From Escherichia coli (GTDB taxonomy: Bacteria; Pseudomonadota; Gammaproteobacteria; Enterobacterales; Enterobacteriaceae), in the NCBI RefSeq assembly GCF_013122565.1, contig NZ_CP053258.1: 64,000 nucleotides of DNA; one strand, 5' to 3'. The notes beneath the pieces are model-generated. The model worked only from the letters and a program-made list of their open reading frames with translations. It did no database searches and was not told the DNA's origin. The translations under genes and the position numbers were made by a program. Shown piece after piece: positions 2,735 to 61,240 of the stretch (positions within the stretch are counted from its first letter, which is position 1; every line of letters begins with the position of its first letter).

Positions 2735-3727
2735 ATGAGTCAGAATACGCTGAAAGTTCATGATTTAAATGAAGATGCGGAATTTGATGAGAACGGAGTT
2801 GAGGTTTTTGACGAAAAGGCCTTAGTAGAAGAGGAACCCAGTGATAACGATTTGGCCGAAGAGGAACTGTTATCGCAGGGAGCCACACAGCGTGTGTTGG
2901 ACGCGACTCAGCTTTACCTTGGTGAGATTGGTTATTCACCACTGTTAACGGCCGAAGAAGAAGTTTATTTTGCGCGTCGCGCACTGCGTGGAGATGTTGC
3001 CTCTCGCCGCCGGATGATCGAGAGTAACTTGCGTCTGGTGGTAAAAATTGCCCGCCGTTATGGCAATCGTGGTCTGGCGTTGCTGGACCTTATCGAAGAG
3101 GGCAACCTGGGGCTGATCCGCGCGGTAGAGAAGTTTGACCCGGAACGTGGTTTCCGCTTCTCAACATACGCAACCTGGTGGATTCGCCAGACGATCGAAC
3201 GGGCGATTATGAACCAAACCCGTACTATTCGTTTGCCGATTCACATCGTAAAGGAGCTGAACGTTTACCTGCGAACCGCACGCGAGTTGTCCCATAAACT
3301 GGACCACGAACCAAGTGCGGAAGAGATCGCAGAGCAACTGGATAAGCCAGTTGATGACGTCAGTCGTATGCTTCGTCTTAACGAGCGCATTACCTCGGTA
3401 GACACCCCGCTGGGTGGTGATTCCGAAAAAGCGTTGCTGGACATCCTGGCCGATGAAAAAGAGAACGGTCCGGAAGATACCACGCAAGATGACGATATGA
3501 AGCAGAGCATCGTCAAATGGCTGTTCGAGCTGAACGCCAAACAGCGTGAAGTACTGGCACGTCGATTCGGTTTGCTGGGGTACGAAGCGGCAACACTGGA
3601 AGATGTAGGTCGTGAAATTGGCCTCACCCGTGAACGTGTTCGCCAGATTCAGGTTGAAGGCCTGCGCCGTTTGCGCGAAATCCTGCAAACGCAGGGGCTG
3701 AATATCGAAGCGCTGTTCCGCGAATAA
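2735..3727 (+). CDS. rpoS: RNA polymerase sigma factor RpoS (sigma-S/sigma-38); 330 aa from the internal ATG (MSQNTLKV), codon 33 is GAG (Glu)
   Basis: ORF translation recognised as RpoS; ORF-track start at 2699 is an upstream in-frame ATG. Confidence 0.95.
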
Positions 3728-3745
3728 GTAAGCATCTGTCAGAAA

Positions 3746-3780
3746 GGCCAGTCTCAAGCGAGGCTGGCCTTTTTTCTTTT
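3746..3780 (+). terminator. Intrinsic terminator downstream of rpoS (GGCCAGTCTC..GAGGCTGGCC hairpin plus T-tract)
   Basis: Inverted repeat followed by TTTTTTCTTTT read in sequence. Confidence 0.7.
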
Positions 3781-3847
3781 GTTTGGGAAGCATGTGTTTT
3801 TGTCGCCTGGATAAGACACGTCAGCGTCCTACCCGGCAATCAGCATT

Positions 3848-4255
3848 CTATGTGTTCATCATCTTGCGCACCAACTGCATAAACAGCTCCTGCTCTTCTG
3901 CACTCAAACGCCCCAAAAATTCCTCATCCACGCTGTCACCAATGGGGATCGCCGCAGCAAGTACCTTTTCTCCTTCGGCAGTCAGCCAGACAAAGCGTCG
4001 CCGCTTGTCAGCGGCGTCATGTTCACGTCTGACTAAGCCACGATTTTCCATTCTTGCCAACATTTCTGCCAGCGTTGCTTTGGTGCTGACTGCTGCTTCT
4101 ATCAGTGCCACCTGTTCGATACCAGGCTTATCAGCAATGGCGCGCATCACCGCGTACTGTGGTTTGGTCAGGTCAGGTAACTCGTGCTGCCAGCGAGCCG
4201 TGTGCTGCTGAAAAAGCTGTCGTAACTGATGGAACGCTTTATTTCGTAACGCCAT
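3848..4255 (-). CDS. MarR/SlyA-family transcriptional regulator, divergent from the decarboxylase operon
   Basis: 135-aa ORF with winged-helix MarR-like core; position matches the slyA-like gene of the non-K-12 mutS-rpoS region. Confidence 0.8.
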   Translation of the reverse strand: MALRNKAFHQLRQLFQQHTARWQHELPDLTKPQYAVMRAIADKPGIEQVALIEAAVSTKATLAEMLARMENRGLVRREHDAADKRRRFVWLTAEGEKVLAAAIPIGDSVDEEFLGRLSAEEQELFMQLVRKMMNT

Positions 4256-4370
4256 GTAAACTCCGGGCTAATTCTCTGCCGCTATCATAGCGGTTTTTCA
4301 GTGACGAAGAAGATGTTGTTACTTTTCAGCGCTTGCCGCGATGAAAACAGAGGCGTATTTTAATAATAAC

Positions 4371-4384
4371 GTTCGTATACGAAC
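4371..4384. promoter_or_regulatory. Perfect 14-bp palindrome GTTCGTATACGAAC in the divergent promoter region, 18 bp upstream of the UbiX-like start; candidate MarR-type operator
   Basis: Palindrome read directly from sequence; position between divergent regulator and operon. Confidence 0.45.
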
Positions 4385-4401
4385 AATTTAGAGAGTAAGC
4401 A

Positions 4402-4995
4402 ATGAAACTGATCGTCGGGATGACAGGGGCCACCGGAGCGCCTCTTGGTGTGGCATTACTGCAAGCACTGCGGGAGATGCCGAATGTCGAGACTCATCTG
4501 GTGATGTCGAAGTGGGCGAAAACCACCATTGAACTGGAAACGCCTTACAGCGCCCGCGATGTTGCTGCCCTCGCTGACTTCAGCCATAACCCGGCGGATC
4601 AGGCGGCGACCATCTCCTCAGGTTCCTTTCGTACCGACGGCATGATCGTTATTCCGTGCAGTATGAAAACGCTCGCAGGTATCCGTGCCGGTTACGCCGA
4701 TGGCCTGGTAGGGCGCGCGGCGGACGTCGTGCTCAAAGAAGGCCGCAAACTGGTGCTGGTGCCGCGTGAAATGCCGCTTAGCACCATCCATCTCGAAAAT
4801 ATGCTCGCACTTTCACGCATGGGCGTGGCGATGGTGCCGCCGATGCCTGCCTTTTATAACCATCCCGAAACGGTAGATGACATTGTCCACCATGTGGTAG
4901 CCCGCGTGTTGGATCAATTTGGCCTCGAACATCCCCACGCCAGGCGCTGGCAAGGATTGCCGCAGGCCCTGAATTTTTCTCAGGAGAATGAATAA
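4402..4995 (+). CDS. UbiX/Pad1-family flavin prenyltransferase paralog (B subunit of a phenolic-acid decarboxylase system)
   Basis: 197-aa ORF with UbiX-like flavoprotein N-terminus (MKLIVGMTGATGA); stop overlaps start of the UbiD-like gene. Confidence 0.85.
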   Translation: MKLIVGMTGATGAPLGVALLQALREMPNVETHLVMSKWAKTTIELETPYSARDVAALADFSHNPADQAATISSGSFRTDGMIVIPCSMKTLAGIRAGYADGLVGRAADVVLKEGRKLVLVPREMPLSTIHLENMLALSRMGVAMVPPMPAFYNHPETVDDIVHHVVARVLDQFGLEHPHARRWQGLPQALNFSQENE

Positions 4996-6422
4996 TGGCA
5001 TTTGATGATTTACGCAGCTTTTTACTGGCGCTTGATGACCACGGCCAGTTACTGAAAATCAGCGAAGAGGTGAACGCGGAACCGGATCTGGCAGCAGCAG
5101 CTAACGCCACCGGGCGTATCGGCGATGGCGCGCCCGCGCTGTGGTTTGATAATATTCGCGGTTTTACCGATGCGCGCGTGGCGATGAATACCATCGGTTC
5201 CTGGCAGAACCACGCGATTTCCCTCGGCCTGCCGCCAAACACGCCGGTCAAAAAGCAGATTGATGAGTTTATCCGCCGCTGGGATAACTTCCCGATCGCC
5301 CCGGAGCGCCGCGCCAATCCAGCCTGGGCGCAGAACACCGTCGATGGCGACGAGATTAACCTGTTCGATATTCTGCCGCTGTTTCGTTTAAACGACGGTG
5401 ATGGCGGTTTCTATCTCGATAAAGCGTGCGTGGTTTCCCGCGACCCGCTCGATCCGGATAACTTCGGCAAGCAGAACGTCGGTATCTACCGCATGGAAGT
5501 GAAGGGCAAACGTAAGCTCGGCCTGCAACCGGTGCCGATGCACGATATCGCCCTGCATCTGCATAAAGCGGAAGAGCGCGGTGAAGATCTGCCGATTGCG
5601 ATCACCCTCGGTAACGATCCGATCATCACCCTGATGGGCGCCACCCCGCTGAAATACGATCAGTCTGAGTACGAAATGGCGGGCGCACTGCGCGAAAGCC
5701 CGTACCCGATCGCTACCGCGCCATTGACCGGTTTTGACGTGCCGTGGGGTTCTGAAGTGATCCTCGAAGGCGTTATCGAAAGCCGCAAACGTGAAATCGA
5801 AGGGCCATTCGGTGAGTTTACCGGCCACTACTCCGGCGGGCGTAACATGACCGTGGTGCGCATCGATAAAGTCTCTTACCGCACCAGGCCGATTTTCGAA
5901 TCGCTGTACCTCGGCATGCCGTGGACCGAAATCGACTACCTGATGGGGCCTGCCACCTGCGTGCCGCTTTACCAGCAACTGAAAGCCGAGTTCCCGGAAG
6001 TGCAGGCGGTAAACGCCATGTACACCCACGGCCTGCTGGCGATTATCTCCACCAAAAAACGCTACGGCGGCTTTGCCCGCGCGGTGGGGCTGCGAGCAAT
6101 GACAACGCCGCATGGTTTGGGCTACGTGAAGATGGTGATTATGGTCGATGAAGACGTTGATCCGTTCAACCTGCCACAGGTGATGTGGGCGCTCTCCTCG
6201 AAAGTGAACCCGGCGGGCGACCTGGTGCAGTTGCCGAATATGTCCGTGCTGGAACTCGACCCAGGTTCAAGCCCGGCGGGGATCACCGACAAGCTGATTA
6301 TCGACGCCACCACGCCTGTTGCCCCGGACAACCGTGGTCACTACAGCCAGCCGGTGGTGGATTTACCGGAAACCAAAGCCTGGGCTGAAAAACTGACCGC
6401 TATGCTGGCCGCACGTAAATAA
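4995..6422 (+). CDS. UbiD-family prFMN-dependent decarboxylase (C subunit)
   Basis: 475-aa ORF with UbiD-family similarity; translationally coupled to the upstream UbiX-like gene. Confidence 0.85.
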   Translation: MAFDDLRSFLLALDDHGQLLKISEEVNAEPDLAAAANATGRIGDGAPALWFDNIRGFTDARVAMNTIGSWQNHAISLGLPPNTPVKKQIDEFIRRWDNFPIAPERRANPAWAQNTVDGDEINLFDILPLFRLNDGDGGFYLDKACVVSRDPLDPDNFGKQNVGIYRMEVKGKRKLGLQPVPMHDIALHLHKAEERGEDLPIAITLGNDPIITLMGATPLKYDQSEYEMAGALRESPYPIATAPLTGFDVPWGSEVILEGVIESRKREIEGPFGEFTGHYSGGRNMTVVRIDKVSYRTRPIFESLYLGMPWTEIDYLMGPATCVPLYQQLKAEFPEVQAVNAMYTHGLLAIISTKKRYGGFARAVGLRAMTTPHGLGYVKMVIMVDEDVDPFNLPQVMWALSSKVNPAGDLVQLPNMSVLELDPGSSPAGITDKLIIDATTPVAPDNRGHYSQPVVDLPETKAWAEKLTAMLAARK

Positions 6423-6432
6423 GGAGAACAAG

Positions 6433-6669
6433 ATGATTTGTCCACGTTGTGCCGATGAACAGATTGAAGTGATGGCGAAATCGCCGGTGAAAGATGTCTG
6501 GACGGTCTACCAGTGCCAGCATTGCCTTTATACCTGGCGCGATACCGAACCGCTACGCCGCACCAGTCGCGAACATTACCCGGAAGCGTTTCGCATGACG
6601 CAGAAAGATATTGATGATGCGCCAATGGTGCCGAGCATCCCGCCGCTGCTGGCGGCAGATAAGCGTTAA
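6433..6669 (+). CDS. Small zinc-ribbon protein, D subunit of the decarboxylase cluster (CPRC...CQHC)
   Basis: 78-aa ORF, four Cys in two CxxC pairs, 10 nt downstream of the UbiD-like gene. Confidence 0.7.
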   Translation: MICPRCADEQIEVMAKSPVKDVWTVYQCQHCLYTWRDTEPLRRTSREHYPEAFRMTQKDIDDAPMVPSIPPLLAADKR

Positions 6670-6710
6670 TAAAAAAGTGCTGGGTAGAGGCTTTGCTTTA
6701 CCCGGCCACG

Positions 6711-7367
6711 TTATTTAATTTTATAAAACGATAACCGTCCACTCTCCGGCGAGCCGGTATCAATATAAACTTGATTGGCAAATGTCTGGATATTGGTAAA
6801 CATCATATGCCCGAAGATAAAACAGTCTGCACCGTTTATTTCTTTTAACTCTCCCTTGAATGATTTCTGCACGCGATCAACAGGCCAGAGTAATTCTCTT
6901 TCTGCTATTTCTTTACCAAACTGATATTCATCACCCGGATAATCCGCATGTGCGATGACATATTTTATTCTGTCGTTAGTGATTTCAATAATATGTGGAA
7001 GGTGATGAAATTTCAGCAACAGATCTATTGCCTCTTGTTGCTCTGAATCATTTAAATCGAAAAACCAGTCACCACCGCTGGCAAGCCACATGTTGCCATC
7101 GCCGGTCGCGAACGCATCCAGCGCCATTGCTTCGTGGTTGCCTTTAACGGAGATAAACCAGGGCTGGTTTAGCAGGCGCAGGACGCTAAGACTCTCCGGC
7201 CCACGATCAATATTATCGCCGACAGAAATAAGTAAGTCGGTTTCGGGGAAAAAAGAGAGTTGATGTAAACGGGATTGTAATAACTGATATTCACCATGAA
7301 TATCACCAACGACCCATATATGGCGATAGTGACGGGCATTGATTTTTTGATAGCGTGTAGATGGCAT
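6711..7367 (-). CDS. pphB: Serine/threonine protein phosphatase 2 (calcineurin-like metallophosphatase)
   Basis: 218-aa ORF with GDIHG and GNHE metallophosphatase motifs; adjacent to mutS. Confidence 0.9.
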   Translation of the reverse strand: MPSTRYQKINARHYRHIWVVGDIHGEYQLLQSRLHQLSFFPETDLLISVGDNIDRGPESLSVLRLLNQPWFISVKGNHEAMALDAFATGDGNMWLASGGDWFFDLNDSEQQEAIDLLLKFHHLPHIIEITNDRIKYVIAHADYPGDEYQFGKEIAERELLWPVDRVQKSFKGELKEINGADCFIFGHMMFTNIQTFANQVYIDTGSPESGRLSFYKIK

Positions 7368-7472
7368 GGTTTTACCCTGTAAAATAAGCTTTCCTATTAT
7401 ACAGGGTATTTTTATTTGATTCGTCAGTTGTCGTTAATATTCCCGATAGCAAAAGACTATCGGGAATTGTTA

Positions 7473-10034
7473 TTACACCAGACTCTTCAAGTGATAAATC
7501 CACTCCAGCGCCTGACGCGGGGTCAGTGAATCCGGGTCGAGATTTTCCAGCGCTTCCACCGCGGGCGAGGTTTCTTCCGGCACTGAAAGCAGCGACATCT
7601 GCGTACCATCAACCTGCGTAGCGGCGGCATTCGGCGAAATGCTCTCCAGCTCGCGCAGTTTCTGCCGCGCACGCTTGATCACCTCTTTCGGCACACCCGC
7701 CAGCGCAGCAACCGCCAGGCCGTAGCTTTTGCTCGCCGCGCCGTCCTGCACGCTGTGCATAAAGGCAATGGTATCGCCGTGCTCCAGTGCATCGAGATGC
7801 ACGTTGGCGACGCCTTCCATTTTCTCCGGTAACTGGGTCAGCTCGAAATAGTGGGTAGCAAACAACGTCAACGCTTTAATCTTATTCGCCAGATTTTCCG
7901 CGCACGCCCACGCCAGCGACAGACCATCGTAAGTGGACGTTCCACGCCCAATCTCATCCATCAGCACCAGACTGTACTCGGTGGCGTTATGTAAAATATT
8001 GGCGGTTTCGGTCATTTCCACCATAAAGGTTGAACGGCCGGAAGCCAGATCGTCCGCTGCCCCTACGCGGGTAAAGATGCGATCGATAGGTCCAATCTCG
8101 ACTTTTTGTGCCGGTACATAGCTGCCGATGTAGGCCATCAACGCAATCAGTGCGGTCTGGCGCATATAGGTACTTTTACCGCCCATATTCGGACCGGTAA
8201 TGATCAACATGCGACGCTGCGGCGACAGGTTCAGCGGGTTGGCGATAAACGGCTCATTCAGCACCTGTTCAACCACCGGATGGCGGCCTTCGGTGATGCG
8301 AATACCCGGTTTATCAATAAAGGTCGGGCAGGTGTAGTTCAGGGTATAGGCCCGCTCTGCCAGGTTAACCAGCACATCAAGTTCTGCCAGCGCGCTTGCG
8401 CTCTGTTGCAACGCTTCCAGATGCGGCAACAGCAGGTCGAACAGCTCTTCATAAAGCTGTTTTTCCAGTGCCAGTGCTTTGCCTTTTGAGGTGAGAACTT
8501 TATCTTCGTACTCTTTTAGCTCTGGAATAATGTAGCGTTCGGCGTTTTTCAGCGTCTGGCGGCGCATGTAGTTAATCGGAGCCAGGTGGCTTTGCCCACG
8601 GCTGATCTGAATGTAATAGCCATGCACCGCGTTAAAGCCAACTTTCAGCGTGTCCAGGCCGGTACGTTCACGCTCGCGGATTTCCAGACGCTCCAGATAA
8701 TCGGTCGCGCCGTCAGCCAGCGCGCGCCACTCATCCAGCTCTTCGTTATAGCCCGATGCGATAACACCACCGTCGCGTACCAGCACTGGCGGTGTGTCGA
8801 TGATTGCTCGCTCCAGCAGATCGCGCAGCTCGGCAAACTCGCCCATCTTCTCACGCAGCGCCTGTACCGGTGCACTATCGACGCCTTCCAGTTGCGCACG
8901 AAGTTCCGGCAGTTGCTGGAAAGCGTGACGCATACGGGCCAGATCGCGTGGGCGAGCGGTACGCAACGCCAGACGCGCCAGAATACGTTCCAGGTCGCCG
9001 ACCTGACGCAGTACCGGCTGCAGCTCGGCGGTGAAATCCTGCAATGCGCCAATAGTTTGCTGGCGCTCAAGCAACACGCGGGTATCGCGCACTGGCATAT
9101 GCAGCCAGCGCTTCAGCATACGGCTACCCATCGGCGTTACAGTGCAGTCGAGTACGGAAGCCAGCGTGTTTTCCGCACCACCCGCCAGATTCTGGGTGAT
9201 TTCCAGATTTCGACGCGTCGCGGCATCCATAATGATGCTGTCCTGCTCACGTTCCATGGTGATAGAACGAATATGCGGCAGGGTTGTGCGTTGGGTATCT
9301 TTCGCATACTGCAACAGACAACCGGCAGCACAAAGTCCGCGCGGCGCGTTCTCGACGCCGAAACCAATCAGATCACGAGTACCAAATTGCAGGTTCAACT
9401 GCTGGCGCGCGGTGTCGATTTCAAACTCCCACAGCGGGCGACGGCGCAGACCGCGACGACCTTCAATTAACGACATTTCAGCAAAATCTTCTGCATACAG
9501 CAGTTCCGCCGGATTAGTGCGTTGCAGTTCTGCCGCCATCGTTTCCCGGTCAGCCGGTTCGCTAAGGCGAAAACGACCGGAGCTGATATCCAGCGTCGCG
9601 TAGCCGAAACCTTTACTGTCCTGCCAGATAGCCGCCAACAGGTTGTCCTGACGCTCCTGCAACAGCGCTTCATCACTGATGGTGCCTGGCGTAACGATAC
9701 GCACAACTTTGCGCTCAACCGGACCTTTGCTGGTCGCCGGATCGCCAATTTGTTCGCAGATGGCAACGGACTCGCCCTGATTCACCAGTTTGGCGAGGTA
9801 GTTTTCCACCGCATGGTAGGGGATCCCCGCCATCGGGATCGGCTCGCCCGCTGAAGCGCCGCGTTTGGTCAGTGAAATATCCAGCAGTTGCGACGCGCGT
9901 TTTGCGTCGTCATAAAACAGTTCATAAAAATCACCCATCCGGTAAAACAGCAGGATCTCGGGATGCTGGGCTTTCAGCTTGAGATACTGCTGCATCATGG
10001 GCGTATGGGCGTCGAAATTTTCTATTGCACTCAT
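7473..10034 (-). CDS. mutS: DNA mismatch repair protein MutS
   Basis: 853-aa ORF with Walker [10 protein letters not shown] and MutS signature; recognised sequence. Confidence 0.97.
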
Positions 10035-10280
10035 GGGGTTATGTCCGGTTCCCTGATATTAAATGGGGTGTGATGGTTTTTATTTTCGTTGTAATCACAT
10101 AAGGCGCACATGATACCGGAGTTAATCATTTCAGGGGAAGAAGCGAACGGCGAGTTCTTGATGCTGGTTCCGGGAAAGATGCTGTTTTGCAGCTTTTGCG
10201 TGATGCTTATGAAGCAAGTACGCAAAATTGTATCGGTTGAATAAACCTCCTCCTTCAGAGCCATAGTCCCCTTTCAAATT

Positions 10281-10303
10281 AAGTTGTAGTATAAATACAC
10301 CTT
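10281..10303. promoter_or_regulatory. Putative NsrR-type operator (AAGTTGTAGTATAAATACACCTT) in the ygbA promoter
   Basis: About 17 of 23 positions match the NsrR 11-1-11 inverted-repeat consensus as I recall it; ygbA is a known NsrR target. Confidence 0.4.
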
Positions 10304-10320
10304 AAGAGTATGGAGGCAGT

Positions 10321-10674
10321 ATGTCCGGCAAGCGTATCTCTCGTGAAAAACTGACGATTAAAAAAATGATCGATCTTTATCAAGCGAAATGCCCGCAGGC
10401 GTCAGCGGAGCCGGAGCATTACGAGGCGTTGTTTGTTTACGCGCAAAAGCGGCTGGATAAATGTGTGTTCGGCGAACAGAAACCAGCCTGTAAGCAGTGT
10501 CCGGTGCACTGTTACCAGCCTGCAAAGCGTGAAGAGATGAAACAGATTATGCGTTGGGCCGGGCCGAGAATGCTGTGGCGTCATCCGATCTTAACCGTGC
10601 GTCATCTCATTGATGACAAGCGTCCGGTGCCAGAACTGCCGGAAAAATATCGTCCGAAAAAACCTCGTGAATAG
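10321..10674 (+). CDS. ygbA: Nitrous-oxide-stimulated promoter family protein YgbA
   Basis: 117-aa Cys-rich ORF between mutS and fhlA. Confidence 0.85.
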   Translation: MSGKRISREKLTIKKMIDLYQAKCPQASAEPEHYEALFVYAQKRLDKCVFGEQKPACKQCPVHCYQPAKREEMKQIMRWAGPRMLWRHPILTVRHLIDDKRPVPELPEKYRPKKPRE

Positions 10675-10710: not shown

Positions 10711-12789
10711 TTAAATCAATGCCGATTTATCAATTCCAAGCCGCTTCATCCGTGACAGCAGGGTCGTGCGTTTCAGCCCCAGACGTTGCGCAGCGCCTTT
10801 AGGCCCGGCAACCACGCCATTAGTTTCTTTCAGCACGCGCACAATCAACTGATATTCATCTTCGCCCTCCTGAGCGACAACCGTTGCGGCAGGCGGCGTT
10901 TCAGGTTCCGGTAAAGCAATATCTGGCAATGACAGCTGCAGCACGTTACCGCGTGTTAGCAATACCGCGCGCTCAATGACGTTTTCCAGTTCGCGTACGT
11001 TACCCGGCCACTCCATGTTGCTCAAGGTGCGCAGCGTCTCGGCAGGAATGCTGTCGATATTGCGCCCCAGACGACGGGCAATTTTGAAGGTAAAGGCTTT
11101 CGCCAGCAGAGGAATATCTTCCGGACGCTCGCGTAGTGGCGGCAGGTGAATCGGGAATACGTTCAGGCGGTAATAGAGATCGCTACGGAACTCACGGTCG
11201 GCGACCATTTTTTTCAGATCGCGGTTAGTCGCGGCGATTAGACGCACGTCCGTCTGAATGATTTTGTTGCTGCCGAGACGTTCAAACTCCTGTTCCTGTA
11301 ATACACGCAGCAACTTCGGCTGTAACTCCAGTGGCATATCGCCCACTTCGTCGAGGAACAGGGAGCTTTTATCCGCCAGTTCAAAACGACCAATGCGCTG
11401 GGCGCTGGCACCGGTAAAAGCTCCGCGTTCATGACCAAACAGATCGCTTTCCAGCAATCCGGCAGGCATTGCCGCGCAGTTCATTTTGACCATGCGGCGA
11501 GTATTACGTCCACTGAGATTATGGATAGCGCGGGCAATCAGCTCTTTACCCGTGCCAGTTTCACCGAGGATCAGCACGGTACTGTCACTTTGCGCCACCA
11601 TTTCAACTTGTTTAAGCACGCTGTACATGGCTTCGCTGCGGCCAATAATCTCGCCAAATTCACTATCAACATTGTTGAGCTGCTCGGTCAGGGCGAGGTT
11701 TTCATCAACCAGCCGTTCTTTCAGACGATGGATTTCCTGATAGGCGAGGGCGTTATCGACAGCGATTGCCACACGTTCGGCAATCTGGCGCAGTAAATTC
11801 AGATTGGTAGTGGTAAATACTTTCTCTTCGCATTGCGCCAGTTTCAGCACGCCCAGCATGGTGTCGCCAGACATCAGCGGTAACAGGCACAAGGTTTGAA
11901 TCTGGTTGCCCCAGGTGTCGAACAACATACGTTCATAGGGGGCTAAATCGTCCCGCTCGTGGAGATTGATCAGCAGCATCTCTTTACTTTTGAACACGCG
12001 TTCGGTGAGGGTTCCGGCTTCATCGACTTCACTCTGTTCGTGGGCGGGATGCTGTTTATCAAGATAGTGAGTGGAGTAGATGTTGAGTTTGTTTTTACGG
12101 TGGCTGCGTAAGACGATACTGATATCGTCAATATCGAAATAGTAATGGATTTCTTTGGCGACTTCGCTGACCAGTTCGTCCATATCCAGGCGGGAAAGCA
12201 CCGCGTTGGTGATGGCGACCAGGATGCGGAAGTTATCGCGTTCCCGGCATAACAACTCATAGTCAACATTGTTAACGACGCGACTCTGGATTTGTTCGGT
12301 GACGACAGAAACGATCTGCGTAAATGTTTGCAGACGATTGAACTCTTTTTCGCTCCAGGGGCGATCGTCATAACGAATAAATTCACAGCCACCAAAAATA
12401 TGCCCTTCTGCCGCCAGTGGCATCAGGCAATAGTGACCAAATTTTGGGTATAGCCCACCTGCGGCCAGCTGCGGCCAGGTTTCACAAAATTCTTCGTAAC
12501 TGCAATGCAGCGTATCAGGGCGCGACAAAATGCTGCGTACCGGACCGTGTGCCAGAACAGTTTCGTCTTCATATTTAATGGGGGTGTCTTTTTCACGCGA
12601 CGCGTAATAAGACGCACGTTGAGTCTGCGCTTGCCACAACACGATAGCCGCGTTGTCGGCGAGCGCAGAACGCTTTACCAGTTGCGAAAGAGCCTCACAC
12701 AGCGAGGCCAGATCGGGCTGCTGCAATAGTGTCCGAGTGATGTCGAACAACCCTTGCTGTCCGAGATCACTCATCGGTGTATATGACAT
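10711..12789 (-). CDS. fhlA: Formate hydrogenlyase transcriptional activator FhlA (sigma-54 enhancer-binding protein); start at MSYTPMSDLG
   Basis: GAF plus AAA+ sigma-54 activator domain ([14 protein letters not shown]) plus C-terminal HTH; ORF track begins 12 codons upstream. Confidence 0.93.
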   Translation of the reverse strand: MSYTPMSDLGQQGLFDITRTLLQQPDLASLCEALSQLVKRSALADNAAIVLWQAQTQRASYYASREKDTPIKYEDETVLAHGPVRSILSRPDTLHCSYEEFCETWPQLAAGGLYPKFGHYCLMPLAAEGHIFGGCEFIRYDDRPWSEKEFNRLQTFTQIVSVVTEQIQSRVVNNVDYELLCRERDNFRILVAITNAVLSRLDMDELVSEVAKEIHYYFDIDDISIVLRSHRKNKLNIYSTHYLDKQHPAHEQSEVDEAGTLTERVFKSKEMLLINLHERDDLAPYERMLFDTWGNQIQTLCLLPLMSGDTMLGVLKLAQCEEKVFTTTNLNLLRQIAERVAIAVDNALAYQEIHRLKERLVDENLALTEQLNNVDSEFGEIIGRSEAMYSVLKQVEMVAQSDSTVLILGETGTGKELIARAIHNLSGRNTRRMVKMNCAAMPAGLLESDLFGHERGAFTGASAQRIGRFELADKSSLFLDEVGDMPLELQPKLLRVLQEQEFERLGSNKIIQTDVRLIAATNRDLKKMVADREFRSDLYYRLNVFPIHLPPLRERPEDIPLLAKAFTFKIARRLGRNIDSIPAETLRTLSNMEWPGNVRELENVIERAVLLTRGNVLQLSLPDIALPEPETPPAATVVAQEGEDEYQLIVRVLKETNGVVAGPKGAAQRLGLKRTTLLSRMKRLGIDKSALI

Positions 12790-48798: not shown

Positions 48799-48891
48799 GG
48801 TGAGGTGGCCGAGAGGCTGAAGGCGCTCCCCTGCTAAGGGAGTATGCGGTTAAAAGCTGCATCCGGGGTTCGAATCCCCGCCTCACCGCCA
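48799..48891 (+). tRNA. serV: tRNA-Ser (anticodon GCU), long variable arm, encoded CCA
   Basis: GGTGAGGTGGCCGAGAGG...CTGCTAA anticodon loop...GGTTCGAATCC T-arm...CACCGCCA. Confidence 0.95.
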
Positions 48892-48894
48892 TTT

Positions 48895-48971
48895 GCATCC
48901 GTAGCTCAGCTGGATAGAGTACTCGGCTACGAACCGAGCGGTCGGAGGTTCGAATCCTCCCGGATGCACCA
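48895..48971 (+). tRNA. argV: tRNA-Arg (anticodon ACG), copy 1
   Basis: GCATCCGTAGCTCAGCTGGATAGAGTACTCGGCTACGAACCGAGCGGTCGGAGGTTCGAATCCTCCCGGATGCACCA. Confidence 0.95.
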
Positions 48972-49105
48972 TATTCTACGTACTTTCAGCGATGAAGGTA
49001 TGGAAGAGGTGGCGGTAATAACCGCAGGCACCAGGGAGGATAACGTTGCTTTAGCAACGGCCCGAAGGGCGAGCCGCAAGGCGAGTAATCCTCCCGGATG
49101 CACCA
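48972..49105 (+). repeat. Spacer unit A (about 134 nt) ending in a pseudo-copy of the tRNA-Arg 3' end (AATCCTCCCGGATGCACCA); second copy at 49525-49657
   Basis: Two copies of roughly 85% identity by eye, both ending in the last 18-19 nt of tRNA-Arg; internal hairpins retained in both. Confidence 0.8.
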
Positions 49106-49169
49106 TCTCTTACTTGATACGGCTTTAGTAGCGGTATCAAAAAATCTGCAGTAAAGTAAGTTTCCCGAT

Positions 49170-49246
49170 GCATCCGTAGCTCAGCTGGATAGAGTACTCG
49201 GCTACGAACCGAGCGGTCGGAGGTTCGAATCCTCCCGGATGCACCA
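49170..49246 (+). tRNA. argY: tRNA-Arg (ACG), copy 2
   Basis: Identical 77-nt tRNA-Arg sequence. Confidence 0.95.
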
Positions 49247-49308
49247 TCTCTTACTTGATATGGCTTTAGTAGCGGTATCAATATCAGCAGTAAAATAAAT
49301 TTTCCGAT

Positions 49309-49385
49309 GCATCCGTAGCTCAGCTGGATAGAGTACTCGGCTACGAACCGAGCGGTCGGAGGTTCGAATCCTCCCGGATGCACCA
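49309..49385 (+). tRNA. argZ: tRNA-Arg (ACG), copy 3
   Basis: Identical 77-nt tRNA-Arg sequence. Confidence 0.95.
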
Positions 49386-49447
49386 TCTCTTAATTGATAT
49401 GGCTTTAGTAGCGGTATCAATATCAGCAGTAAAATAAATTTCCCGAT

Positions 49448-49524
49448 GCATCCGTAGCTCAGCTGGATAGAGTACTCGGCTACGAACCGAGCGGTCGGAG
49501 GTTCGAATCCTCCCGGATGCACCA
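49448..49524 (+). tRNA. argQ: tRNA-Arg (ACG), copy 4
   Basis: Identical 77-nt tRNA-Arg sequence. Confidence 0.95.
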
Positions 49525-52433: not shown

Positions 52434-52506
52434 AAAAAGGCCACTCGTGAGTGGCCAAAATTTCATCTCTGAATTCAGGGATGATGATAACAAATGCGCG
52501 TCTTTC
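52434..52506 (-). ncRNA. micA: MicA (SraD) Hfq-dependent sRNA, antisense in the gshA-luxS gap
   Basis: Minus-strand sequence GAAAGACGCGCATTTGTTATCATCATCCCTGAATTCAGAGATGAAATTTTGGCCACTCACGAGTGGCCTTTTT matches MicA as I recall it, including the terminator hairpin and U-tail. Confidence 0.9.
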
Positions 52507-61159: not shown

Positions 61160-61240
61160 GTAGGCATGATAAGACGCGCCAGCGTCGCATCAGGCATTGT
61201 GTACAGAGCGGCGGATGCGGCGAAAACGCCTTATCCGCCC
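61160..61240. repeat. REP/BIME elements between ygaY and proX
   Basis: GTAGGCATGATAAGACGCGCCAGCGTCGCATCAGGCA and GGCGGATGCGGCGAAAACGCCTTATCCGCCC palindromes. Confidence 0.75.

Follow-up and report, generated by a model that had tools for sequence, protein, structure and literature searches.

The region between rpoS and mutS is polymorphic in Escherichia coli, and Ewers et al. 2014 (PMC4209514) distinguished four patterns of it, giving primers and expected product sizes for each. In pattern I, known from O157:H7 (EDL933-type) strains, the region carries the "2.9-kb insert", whereas pattern IV, the long form of the enteropathogenic E. coli (EPEC) strain E2348/69, reads rpoS-hosA-ecdBCD-ygbN...ygbI-pphB-mutS. 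The decarboxylase genes of this region have described relatives in KpdBCD of Klebsiella pneumoniae and EcdBCD of Enterobacter cloacae, both 4-hydroxybenzoate decarboxylases, and in VdcCD of Sedimentibacter hydroxybenzoicus and Bacillus subtilis (PDB 7AE4, 7AE5, and 7AE7; PMC8379154), which combine a UbiD-type C subunit with a zinc-ribbon D subunit and have a UbiX-type B gene in the operon. Here, we analyzed a stretch of 64,000 nucleotides (the window) from an E. coli chromosome (contig NZ_CP053258.1 of assembly GCF_013122565.1), centering on the interval between rpoS and pphB. This interval is the short, O157:H7/EDL933-type form, pattern I, of the polymorphic rpoS-mutS region. Taken as a whole, the locus is very probably best explained as a pattern I region with a decarboxylase module under the control of the repressor HosA.

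The gene order was read from the list of open reading frames (ORFs) and from comparison with annotated E. coli records. From left to right, the window has surE, pcm, nlpD, rpoS, hosA, ecdB-ecdC-ecdD, pphB, mutS, ygbA, and fhlA, followed by hyp and hyc genes, and the rpoS-pphB interval occupies exactly positions 3728 to 6710. When the window was compared by BLAST with three E. coli loci (O157:H7, a long-form strain, and K-12 MG1655), the 3′ end of rpoS and its terminator (3700 to 3773) were found to be common to K-12, homology to which stops at 3773 and picks up again at about 6712, in the 3′ end of pphB. An earlier note on this DNA had spoken of a non-K-12 segment of about 2.9 kb, and this was exact, 2,901 bp being without a K-12 counterpart. 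Between rpoS and pphB, K-12 has ygbN, ygbM, otnC, otnK, ltnD, and ygbI (about 6.1 kb), a block without any BLAST match in the window, and the long-form strain has both this block and the 2.9-kb segment. The window spacer at 6675 to 6710 is present only where ecdD abuts pphB. The EPEC E2348/69-type long form has the same module and the same left junction and is 96% identical to the window over positions 3700 to 6674, but it carries the 6.1-kb ygbI-ygbN block (ltnD, otnK, and otnC) between ecdD and pphB, which the window lacks.

The typing primers published by Ewers et al. 2014 gave a consistent picture when run in silico on the window. The mutS-yclC, slyA-nlpD, and fhlA-nlpD amplicons measured 1,319, 1,394, and 8,681 bp, against 1,318, 1,393, and 8,679 bp published for EDL933, and the fhlA-mutS amplicon was 1,208 bp, as published for EDL933, and not 1,673 bp, as with a B2-type insert. 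In silico PCR found no site in the window for the o454, o388, and f265 primers even with four mismatches allowed and none for the o347 primer, the B2-type o347/c3302-c3304 insert being missing. Since the amplicon sizes match those of EDL933 and the o454, o388, f265, and o347 primers lack a site, the window was typed as pattern I. Moreover, a single colinear alignment links window positions 3700 to 6788 with O157:H7 (95.6% identity over 3,089 columns). The two regions agree in gene order, at both junctions, in the ecdD-pphB spacer, and in the sizes of ORFs and PCR products, and their proteins are 97 to 100% identical; they differ in DNA, with identities of 95.6% in the segment, 91.3% in pphB, and about 94.7% over the whole of mutS. 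The match to the O157:H7-type region and the replacement of the K-12 ygbI-ygbN block, both proposed earlier, are thus confirmed by alignment, PCR sizes, and missing primer sites, and the comparison with O157:H7 is syntenic throughout.

The ORFs of the interval also lie where the earlier note had placed them, with a MarR-like regulator divergent from a UbiX-like/UbiD-like/zinc-ribbon operon. The B, C, and D genes are adjacent and on the same strand; the ecdB stop codon overlaps the ecdC start, and the 10-nucleotide gap before ecdD contains AAGGAG, a good ribosome-binding site. ecdBCD is a maintained, co-translated operon. At the curated NCBIfam cutoffs, the three products are named subunits B, C, and D of non-oxidative hydroxyarylic acid decarboxylase: EcdB scores 312.2 bits on the VdcB model NF041206 (cutoff, 290), EcdC 788.1 bits on the VdcC model NF041204 (cutoff, 650), and EcdD 121.2 bits on the VdcD model NF041205 (cutoff, 30). 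Among solved structures, EcdB matches PDB 1SBZ, Pad1 of O157:H7 (E = 1.6e-128), EcdC matches chain A of PDB 7AE4, the Sedimentibacter enzyme ShVdcC (E = 9.7e-160, 536 bits), and EcdD aligns to ShdD of the same entry.

Residue-by-residue alignment places R166, E269, E274, and L421 of EcdC on R168, E273, E278, and L425 of ShVdcC, so that the Glu-Arg-Glu motif and the leucine are kept. Three of these ShVdcC residues (R168, E278, and L425) are named in PMC8379154, and E273 was placed by alignment with E277 of Fdc1, the first glutamate of the catalytic triad described in the same paper. All four zinc-binding cysteines of EcdD (C3, C6, C28, and C31) are kept as well. The motif, the leucine, and the four cysteines are therefore common to EcdCD and the VdcCD systems of S. 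hydroxybenzoicus and B. subtilis, although the latter are distant Firmicutes homologues: EcdC differs from ShVdcC by many substitutions, and EcdD is longer, with a six-residue insertion. KpdBCD and the E. cloacae EcdBCD, on the other hand, are orthologues of the window operon, and EcdC shares 96 to 97% protein identity and about 80% DNA identity with Klebsiella and Enterobacter species representatives, in which the gene has the same rpoS-mutS position. With the curated VdcB, VdcC, and VdcD cutoffs passed and the key residues kept, the sequences support the earlier prediction of an aromatic-acid decarboxylase that depends on prenylated flavin mononucleotide (FMN) and brings its own prenyl-FMN synthase.

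The segment ORFs have the same lengths as in O157:H7, and identical residues number 132 of 135 in HosA, 195 of 197 in EcdB, 474 of 475 in EcdC, and 76 of 78 in EcdD. Against the same reference, the four ORFs differ by 2.4 to 5% in DNA, with dS values of up to 0.23, yet the ratio of nonsynonymous to synonymous divergence (dN/dS) stays at 0.009 in ecdC, about 0.05 in both ecdB and ecdD, and 0.10 in hosA. All four segment genes are under purifying selection.

What is known of the characterized homologues bears on how the window enzyme may work. VdcC without VdcD is inactive, VdcD being an allosteric activator that stabilizes the catalytic loops; in the VdcCD complex, D subunits decorate a C-subunit hexamer, the cofactor is inactivated by oxygen, and VdcCD homologues turn over 4-hydroxybenzoate and vanillate (PMC8379154). 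By analogy, EcdCD would depend on its D subunit, form a hexamer, and be sensitive to oxygen.

The regulator matches PDB 8AGA, "Transcriptional regulator HosA", over residues 1 to 135 (E = 5.9e-85), and it passes no NCBIfam equivalog cutoff. The earlier description of it as SlyA/MarR-like was right as to the MarR family and wrong if taken to mean a SlyA orthologue, since it reaches 29.8 bits on the SlyA equivalog, for which the cutoff is 120. Judged from its sequence, the regulator is HosA, and the label "slyA" of the early literature reflects a family resemblance only, namely, the MarR-family winged helix-turn-helix fold that the two have in common. It differs from the O157:H7 protein by three substitutions.

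In E. coli UMN026, HosA is a repressor both of its own gene and of the decarboxylase operon (10.1101/2024.04.24.590444, citing Roy and Ranjan 2016; PMC6261655). Its target is a 14-bp palindrome that lies downstream of the transcription start and from which 4-hydroxybenzoate releases it, with a dissociation constant (KD) of about 4.7 µM (10.1101/2024.04.24.590444; PMC6261655). The supplement of PMC6261655 gives a HosA binding-site oligonucleotide that contains GTTCGTATACGAAC, and window positions 4364 to 4388 are identical to the palindrome and flanks of this oligonucleotide; the window thus has the same operator sequence as that of HosA of UMN026 and E2348/69 (PDB 8AGA). The predicted operator is found with at most two mismatches in 77 of 78 related loci, at 15 to 21 bp before the ecdB ATG in most of those where the distance could be scored. 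A second operator-like site (e.g., GATCGTATACGAAC) lies beside the −35 region in Klebsiella, Enterobacter, Kluyvera, and Pseudocitrobacter loci. The hosA-ecdB intergenic region is about 25 bp shorter in the three aligned Escherichia copies, in which this second site is degenerate (window 4300 to 4330).

A putative ecdB promoter, an 8-of-12 match to the consensus, would lie at 4333 to 4361; its CTTG and GTA positions are kept in 14 aligned intergenic regions, across genera. Some observations weigh against the overall reading. A consensus promoter scan of positions 3650 to 6800 at a 9-of-12 threshold gave no site, and HosA has been reported to affect motility in EPEC (10.1101/2024.04.24.590444), which a decarboxylase model leaves unexplained.

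We propose the following working model, in which the ligand, substrates, oligomeric state, and oxygen sensitivity are those of the characterized homologues. HosA, as a MarR-family dimer, would occupy GTTCGTATACGAAC just downstream of the ecdB promoter and block transcription. Binding of 4-hydroxybenzoate would cause HosA to leave the DNA and thereby allow expression of the translationally coupled operon. EcdB, as a UbiX-type prenyltransferase, would convert FMN to prenylated FMN, and EcdC, of the UbiD type and probably hexameric, would take up this cofactor, with the EcdD zinc ribbon keeping the catalytic Glu-Arg-Glu loops in place. EcdCD would then reversibly take CO2 off 4-hydroxybenzoate to yield phenol and probably act also on vanillate and related phenolic acids; the enzyme is probably oxygen sensitive.

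It seems unlikely that the main substrate is another aromatic acid, such as protocatechuate (as for AroY) or gallate, or that the enzyme serves mainly as a phenol carboxylase. These enzymes are reversible and promiscuous, and the B subunit boosts the protocatechuate decarboxylase AroY; however, AroY structures match EcdC at only 92 to 100 bits, against 536 bits for ShVdcC. The pocket deserves attention in this respect: in the alignment, V180 and L419 of EcdC and V66 of EcdD match B. subtilis VdcCD, which has the larger pocket, and not the Sedimentibacter enzyme, and the equivalent positions have been tied to syringate acceptance (PMC8379154). This suggests that the substrate range of EcdCD may be wider. 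Nevertheless, the ligand of the cognate regulator is 4-hydroxybenzoate (10.1101/2024.04.24.590444; PMC6261655), and 4-hydroxybenzoate and vanillate are compounds turned over by VdcCD homologues (PMC8379154), and both points speak against a different main substrate.

How the module came to lie between rpoS and mutS was approached through its distribution. Among 5,426 complete E. coli genomes, ecdC is present in 2,415 (44.5%), from hosts of every kind and always on the chromosome; none of the 2,423 ecdC copies is plasmid borne. The short form, scored as a single location that covers 80% or more of window 3400 to 7500, occurs in 801 of these genomes (14.8%), and most other ecdC carriers have the long form. 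The earlier note had assigned the segment to O157:H7-like and other non-K-12 lineages; it does have the O157:H7 form, but this form is not special to O157-like lineages, being found in those 801 genomes, in another Escherichia species, and in Pseudocitrobacter. In E. coli YZ3E2001 (NZ_CP135961-type record), an IS4-like ISVsa5 transposase lies inside the hosA-ecdBCD segment.

A scan of one genome per bacterial species yielded 353 EcdC relatives, and locus layouts were read for the best 80 of the 353. In 39 of the 80 species loci, mostly of Enterobacteriaceae, the module lies between rpoS and mutS in the orientation of the window; the genera include Citrobacter, Klebsiella, Enterobacter, Kluyvera, Kosakonia, Atlantibacter, and Franconibacter. 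Five loci (two of Salmonella and three of Phytobacter) have it inverted between the same anchors, and in 12 more it lies beside rpoS or mutS, the other anchor not being found in the DNA available there. Pantoea, Erwinia, Rahnella, and one Vibrio have the module elsewhere, with hosA still attached. The inverted Salmonella loci carry ygbI and ygbN homologues on the hosA side, and an additional stretch of about 2.6 kb separates rpoS from hosA in nine loci of Enterobacter, Leclercia, Lelliottia, and Klebsiella. As for pphB, Escherichia and Pseudocitrobacter were the only genera to have it in the 80 species loci, save for a 61%-identical homologue in Klebsiella spallanzanii, and the gene looks like a later insertion beside an old ecd module. 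Its G+C content is low, about 42 to 45%.

We read the module as long established between rpoS and mutS in Enterobacteriaceae and lost by K-12 and B2 lineages, and not as a pathogen-specific island. This reading follows from the rpoS-mutS position in 39 of 80 loci, from the lack of an integrase, a nearby tRNA gene, or repeats, and from the module never being plasmid borne in E. coli. Specifically, no integrase or transposase is present among the four segment ORFs, all of which have known functions; a repeat search found no direct or inverted (terminal) repeats flanking the segment; and Rfam located tRNA genes of the window only at 48.8 to 49.5 kb, far from the segment.

The contrasting proposal, that the segment is a horizontally acquired, pathogen-associated island that entered O157-like lineages from outside, has a precedent in the HosA preprint (10.1101/2024.04.24.590444), which proposes horizontal acquisition with Shigella as the source. 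The lack of a K-12 counterpart would agree with it, as would the exchange of ecdC, ecdD, and pphB between Escherichia and Pseudocitrobacter discussed below. The G+C content of the operon is 57 to 59%, above the roughly 51 to 55% of the flanking genes and the level of pphB, and this is the one observation that an ancient foreign origin would equally explain. We nonetheless consider an island improbable: at least 39 species representatives have the same module between rpoS and mutS, it occurs in 44.5% of the complete E. coli genomes, with hosts of all kinds, and is never plasmid borne, the usual marks of integration are missing, and differential loss is a simpler account of the pattern. A reading of the UbiX-like/UbiD-like pair as a spare ubiquinone-pathway decarboxylase for 3-polyprenyl-4-hydroxybenzoate, in place of free phenolic acids, is hardly credible, for although the superfamilies are the same and E. 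coli UbiD structures match EcdC at E values of about 1e-46, EcdC fails the UbiD equivalog (172.7 bits; cutoff, 788) while passing VdcC (788 versus 650), the VdcD subunit has no counterpart in the ubiquinone enzyme, and the repressor responds to free 4-hydroxybenzoate (10.1101/2024.04.24.590444; PMC6261655).

The old-resident reading concerns the module; the particular copy in the window has a history of its own. From surE to rpoS, the window is about 99% identical to K-12 and O157:H7 (differing by 0.3 to 1% from the latter), and the best E. coli match over positions 12000 to 36000 is 98.4%. Divergence is raised from about 3600 to about 10500, that is, from hosA to the mutS-ygbA spacer, amounting to 2.5 to 5% over hosA-ecdD and 5 to 15% in pphB and mutS. 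Synonymous divergence from O157:H7 reaches 0.20 in ecdC, 0.33 in pphB, and 0.25 in mutS, against 0.015 in nlpD and a range of 0.015 to 0.04 for nlpD and rpoS. The closest complete E. coli genomes are at most 95.9% identical in ecdC and 95.7% in mutS, and the segment copy is 4 to 9% diverged in DNA from all of them; Escherichia sp. E1V33, the closest representative outside E. coli, reaches just 91 to 93% identity. The exact PphB protein was found on only two contigs, one of which (the Logan assembly of SRR11451224) is 100% identical over window 3711 to 10367. The hosA-mutS tract is a rare, deeply divergent allele and has the look of DNA brought in by recombination from an Escherichia lineage that has not been sampled. 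Denamur et al. in 2000 and Brown et al. are said to have found the mutS region to be mosaic and prone to recombination, a history that such an allele fits.

Exchange appears to have crossed the genus boundary as well. Between two Pseudocitrobacter genomes and the Escherichia alleles, DNA identity is 93 to 96% in ecdC and ecdD and 86 to 91% in pphB, compared with 70% in hosA, 80 to 82% in ecdB, 89% in rpoS, and 86% in mutS. This contrast indicates that the ecdC-pphB stretch was exchanged between Escherichia and Pseudocitrobacter.

The right junction speaks to the age of the short form. The ecdD-pphB spacer, about 41 bp with a hairpin, is homologous in O157:H7, Escherichia sp. E1V33, an Escherichia-like metagenome-assembled genome contig, and two Pseudocitrobacter genomes. 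Since it is homologous across species, the short-form junction is common to several species and is not a private O157 deletion scar. The canonical repetitive extragenic palindromic (REP) pattern has no match in this spacer, which only resembles a REP hairpin. At the other end, the sequence GCCTGGATAAGACACGTCAGCGTCCTACCCGGC (window 3808 to 3843), which lies between the rpoS terminator and the stop codon of hosA, reads, by eye only, like a reversed REP element; if it is REP-like, REP-like sequences stand at both ends of the 2.9-kb segment.

In 2000, Herbelin et al. reportedly took the long form to be the ancestral state in E. coli, with a deletion giving rise to the O157:H7 form. A junction common to several species implies either that the short form is older than E. 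coli or that it spread by homologous recombination. We tentatively suggest, with more doubt than confidence, that the short form is an old haplotype persisting in, or moving between, Escherichia species and Pseudocitrobacter, and not a recent O157:H7 deletion, the window holding a rare divergent allele of it that may have been imported from an unsampled Escherichia lineage.

Table 1. Positions of the features of the rpoS-mutS region in the window
Feature	Position	Strand	Remarks
rpoS	2735..3727	+	Left anchor gene; 330 aa, all identical to O157:H7 RpoS
rpoS terminator hairpin	3741..3774	+	Left junction of the non-K-12 segment at 3773/3774
Segment without K-12 counterpart	3774..6674		2901 bp; in the O157:H7 short form and the EPEC-type long form
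hosA	3848..4255	-	MarR-family repressor, 135 aa; old label "slyA"; PDB 8AGA match
ecdB promoter (inferred, sigma-70)	4333..4361	+	-35 TTGCCG at 4333-4338, 17-nt spacer, -10 TATTTT at 4356-4361
HosA operator (predicted)	4371..4384		Perfect 14-bp palindrome GTTCGTATACGAAC, 17 bp upstream of the ecdB ATG
ecdB (pad1, kpdB, vdcB)	4402..4995	+	UbiX-family flavin prenyltransferase, 197 aa; NCBIfam VdcB; PDB 1SBZ
ecdC (yclC, kpdC, vdcC)	4995..6422	+	UbiD-family catalytic subunit, 475 aa; NCBIfam VdcC; PDB 7AE4 chain A
ecdD (kpdD, vdcD)	6433..6669	+	Zinc-ribbon activator subunit, 78 aa, two CxxC motifs; NCBIfam VdcD; ShdD of PDB 7AE4
REP-resembling hairpin	6679..6706	+	Fills the ecdD-pphB short-form spacer; hairpin scan
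pphB	6711..7367	-	Right neighbour, divergent allele; versus O157:H7, 201/218 aa and 91.3% DNA identity
mutS	7473..10034	-	Right anchor gene; ORF list and BLAST comparison

The mechanical rpoS ORF opens at an in-frame ATG that precedes the annotated start by 12 codons (2699 to 2734), and codon 33 of RpoS is Glu. Elsewhere in the window, Rfam detected a five-tRNA cluster (48799 to 49521), the small RNA MicA (52435 to 52506, minus strand), and the REP-derived RNA naRNA4 (61163 to 61240, minus strand), all of which are expected for this region of the E. coli chromosome.

The module, its regulator, the operator, and their polymorphic distribution have already been described, and structures have been solved for HosA, for O157:H7 Pad1/EcdB, and for the distant homologues of EcdC and EcdD (ShVdcCD). 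Our comparison establishes for this strain the gene content, junctions, family membership, catalytic and zinc residues, operator identity and conservation, and purifying selection. The segment is real and intact but ordinary, and the practical value of the result is small: the rpoS-mutS region of the strain has been typed as pattern I. As to the biology of the strain, we predict that it senses 4-hydroxybenzoate and, under low oxygen, makes phenol from it and probably guaiacol from vanillate, a trait that would bear on phenol production in the gut and on how well plant phenolic acids and parabens are tolerated. The allelic depth of the ecdC-mutS tract and the cross-species junction are minor leads on the recombination history of the mutS region. 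If the tentative proposal of an old, mobile haplotype is right, the short form or a still shorter one would predate the long form in Escherichia, and the locus would offer a clean, dated example of cross-species homologous exchange at the mutS hotspot.

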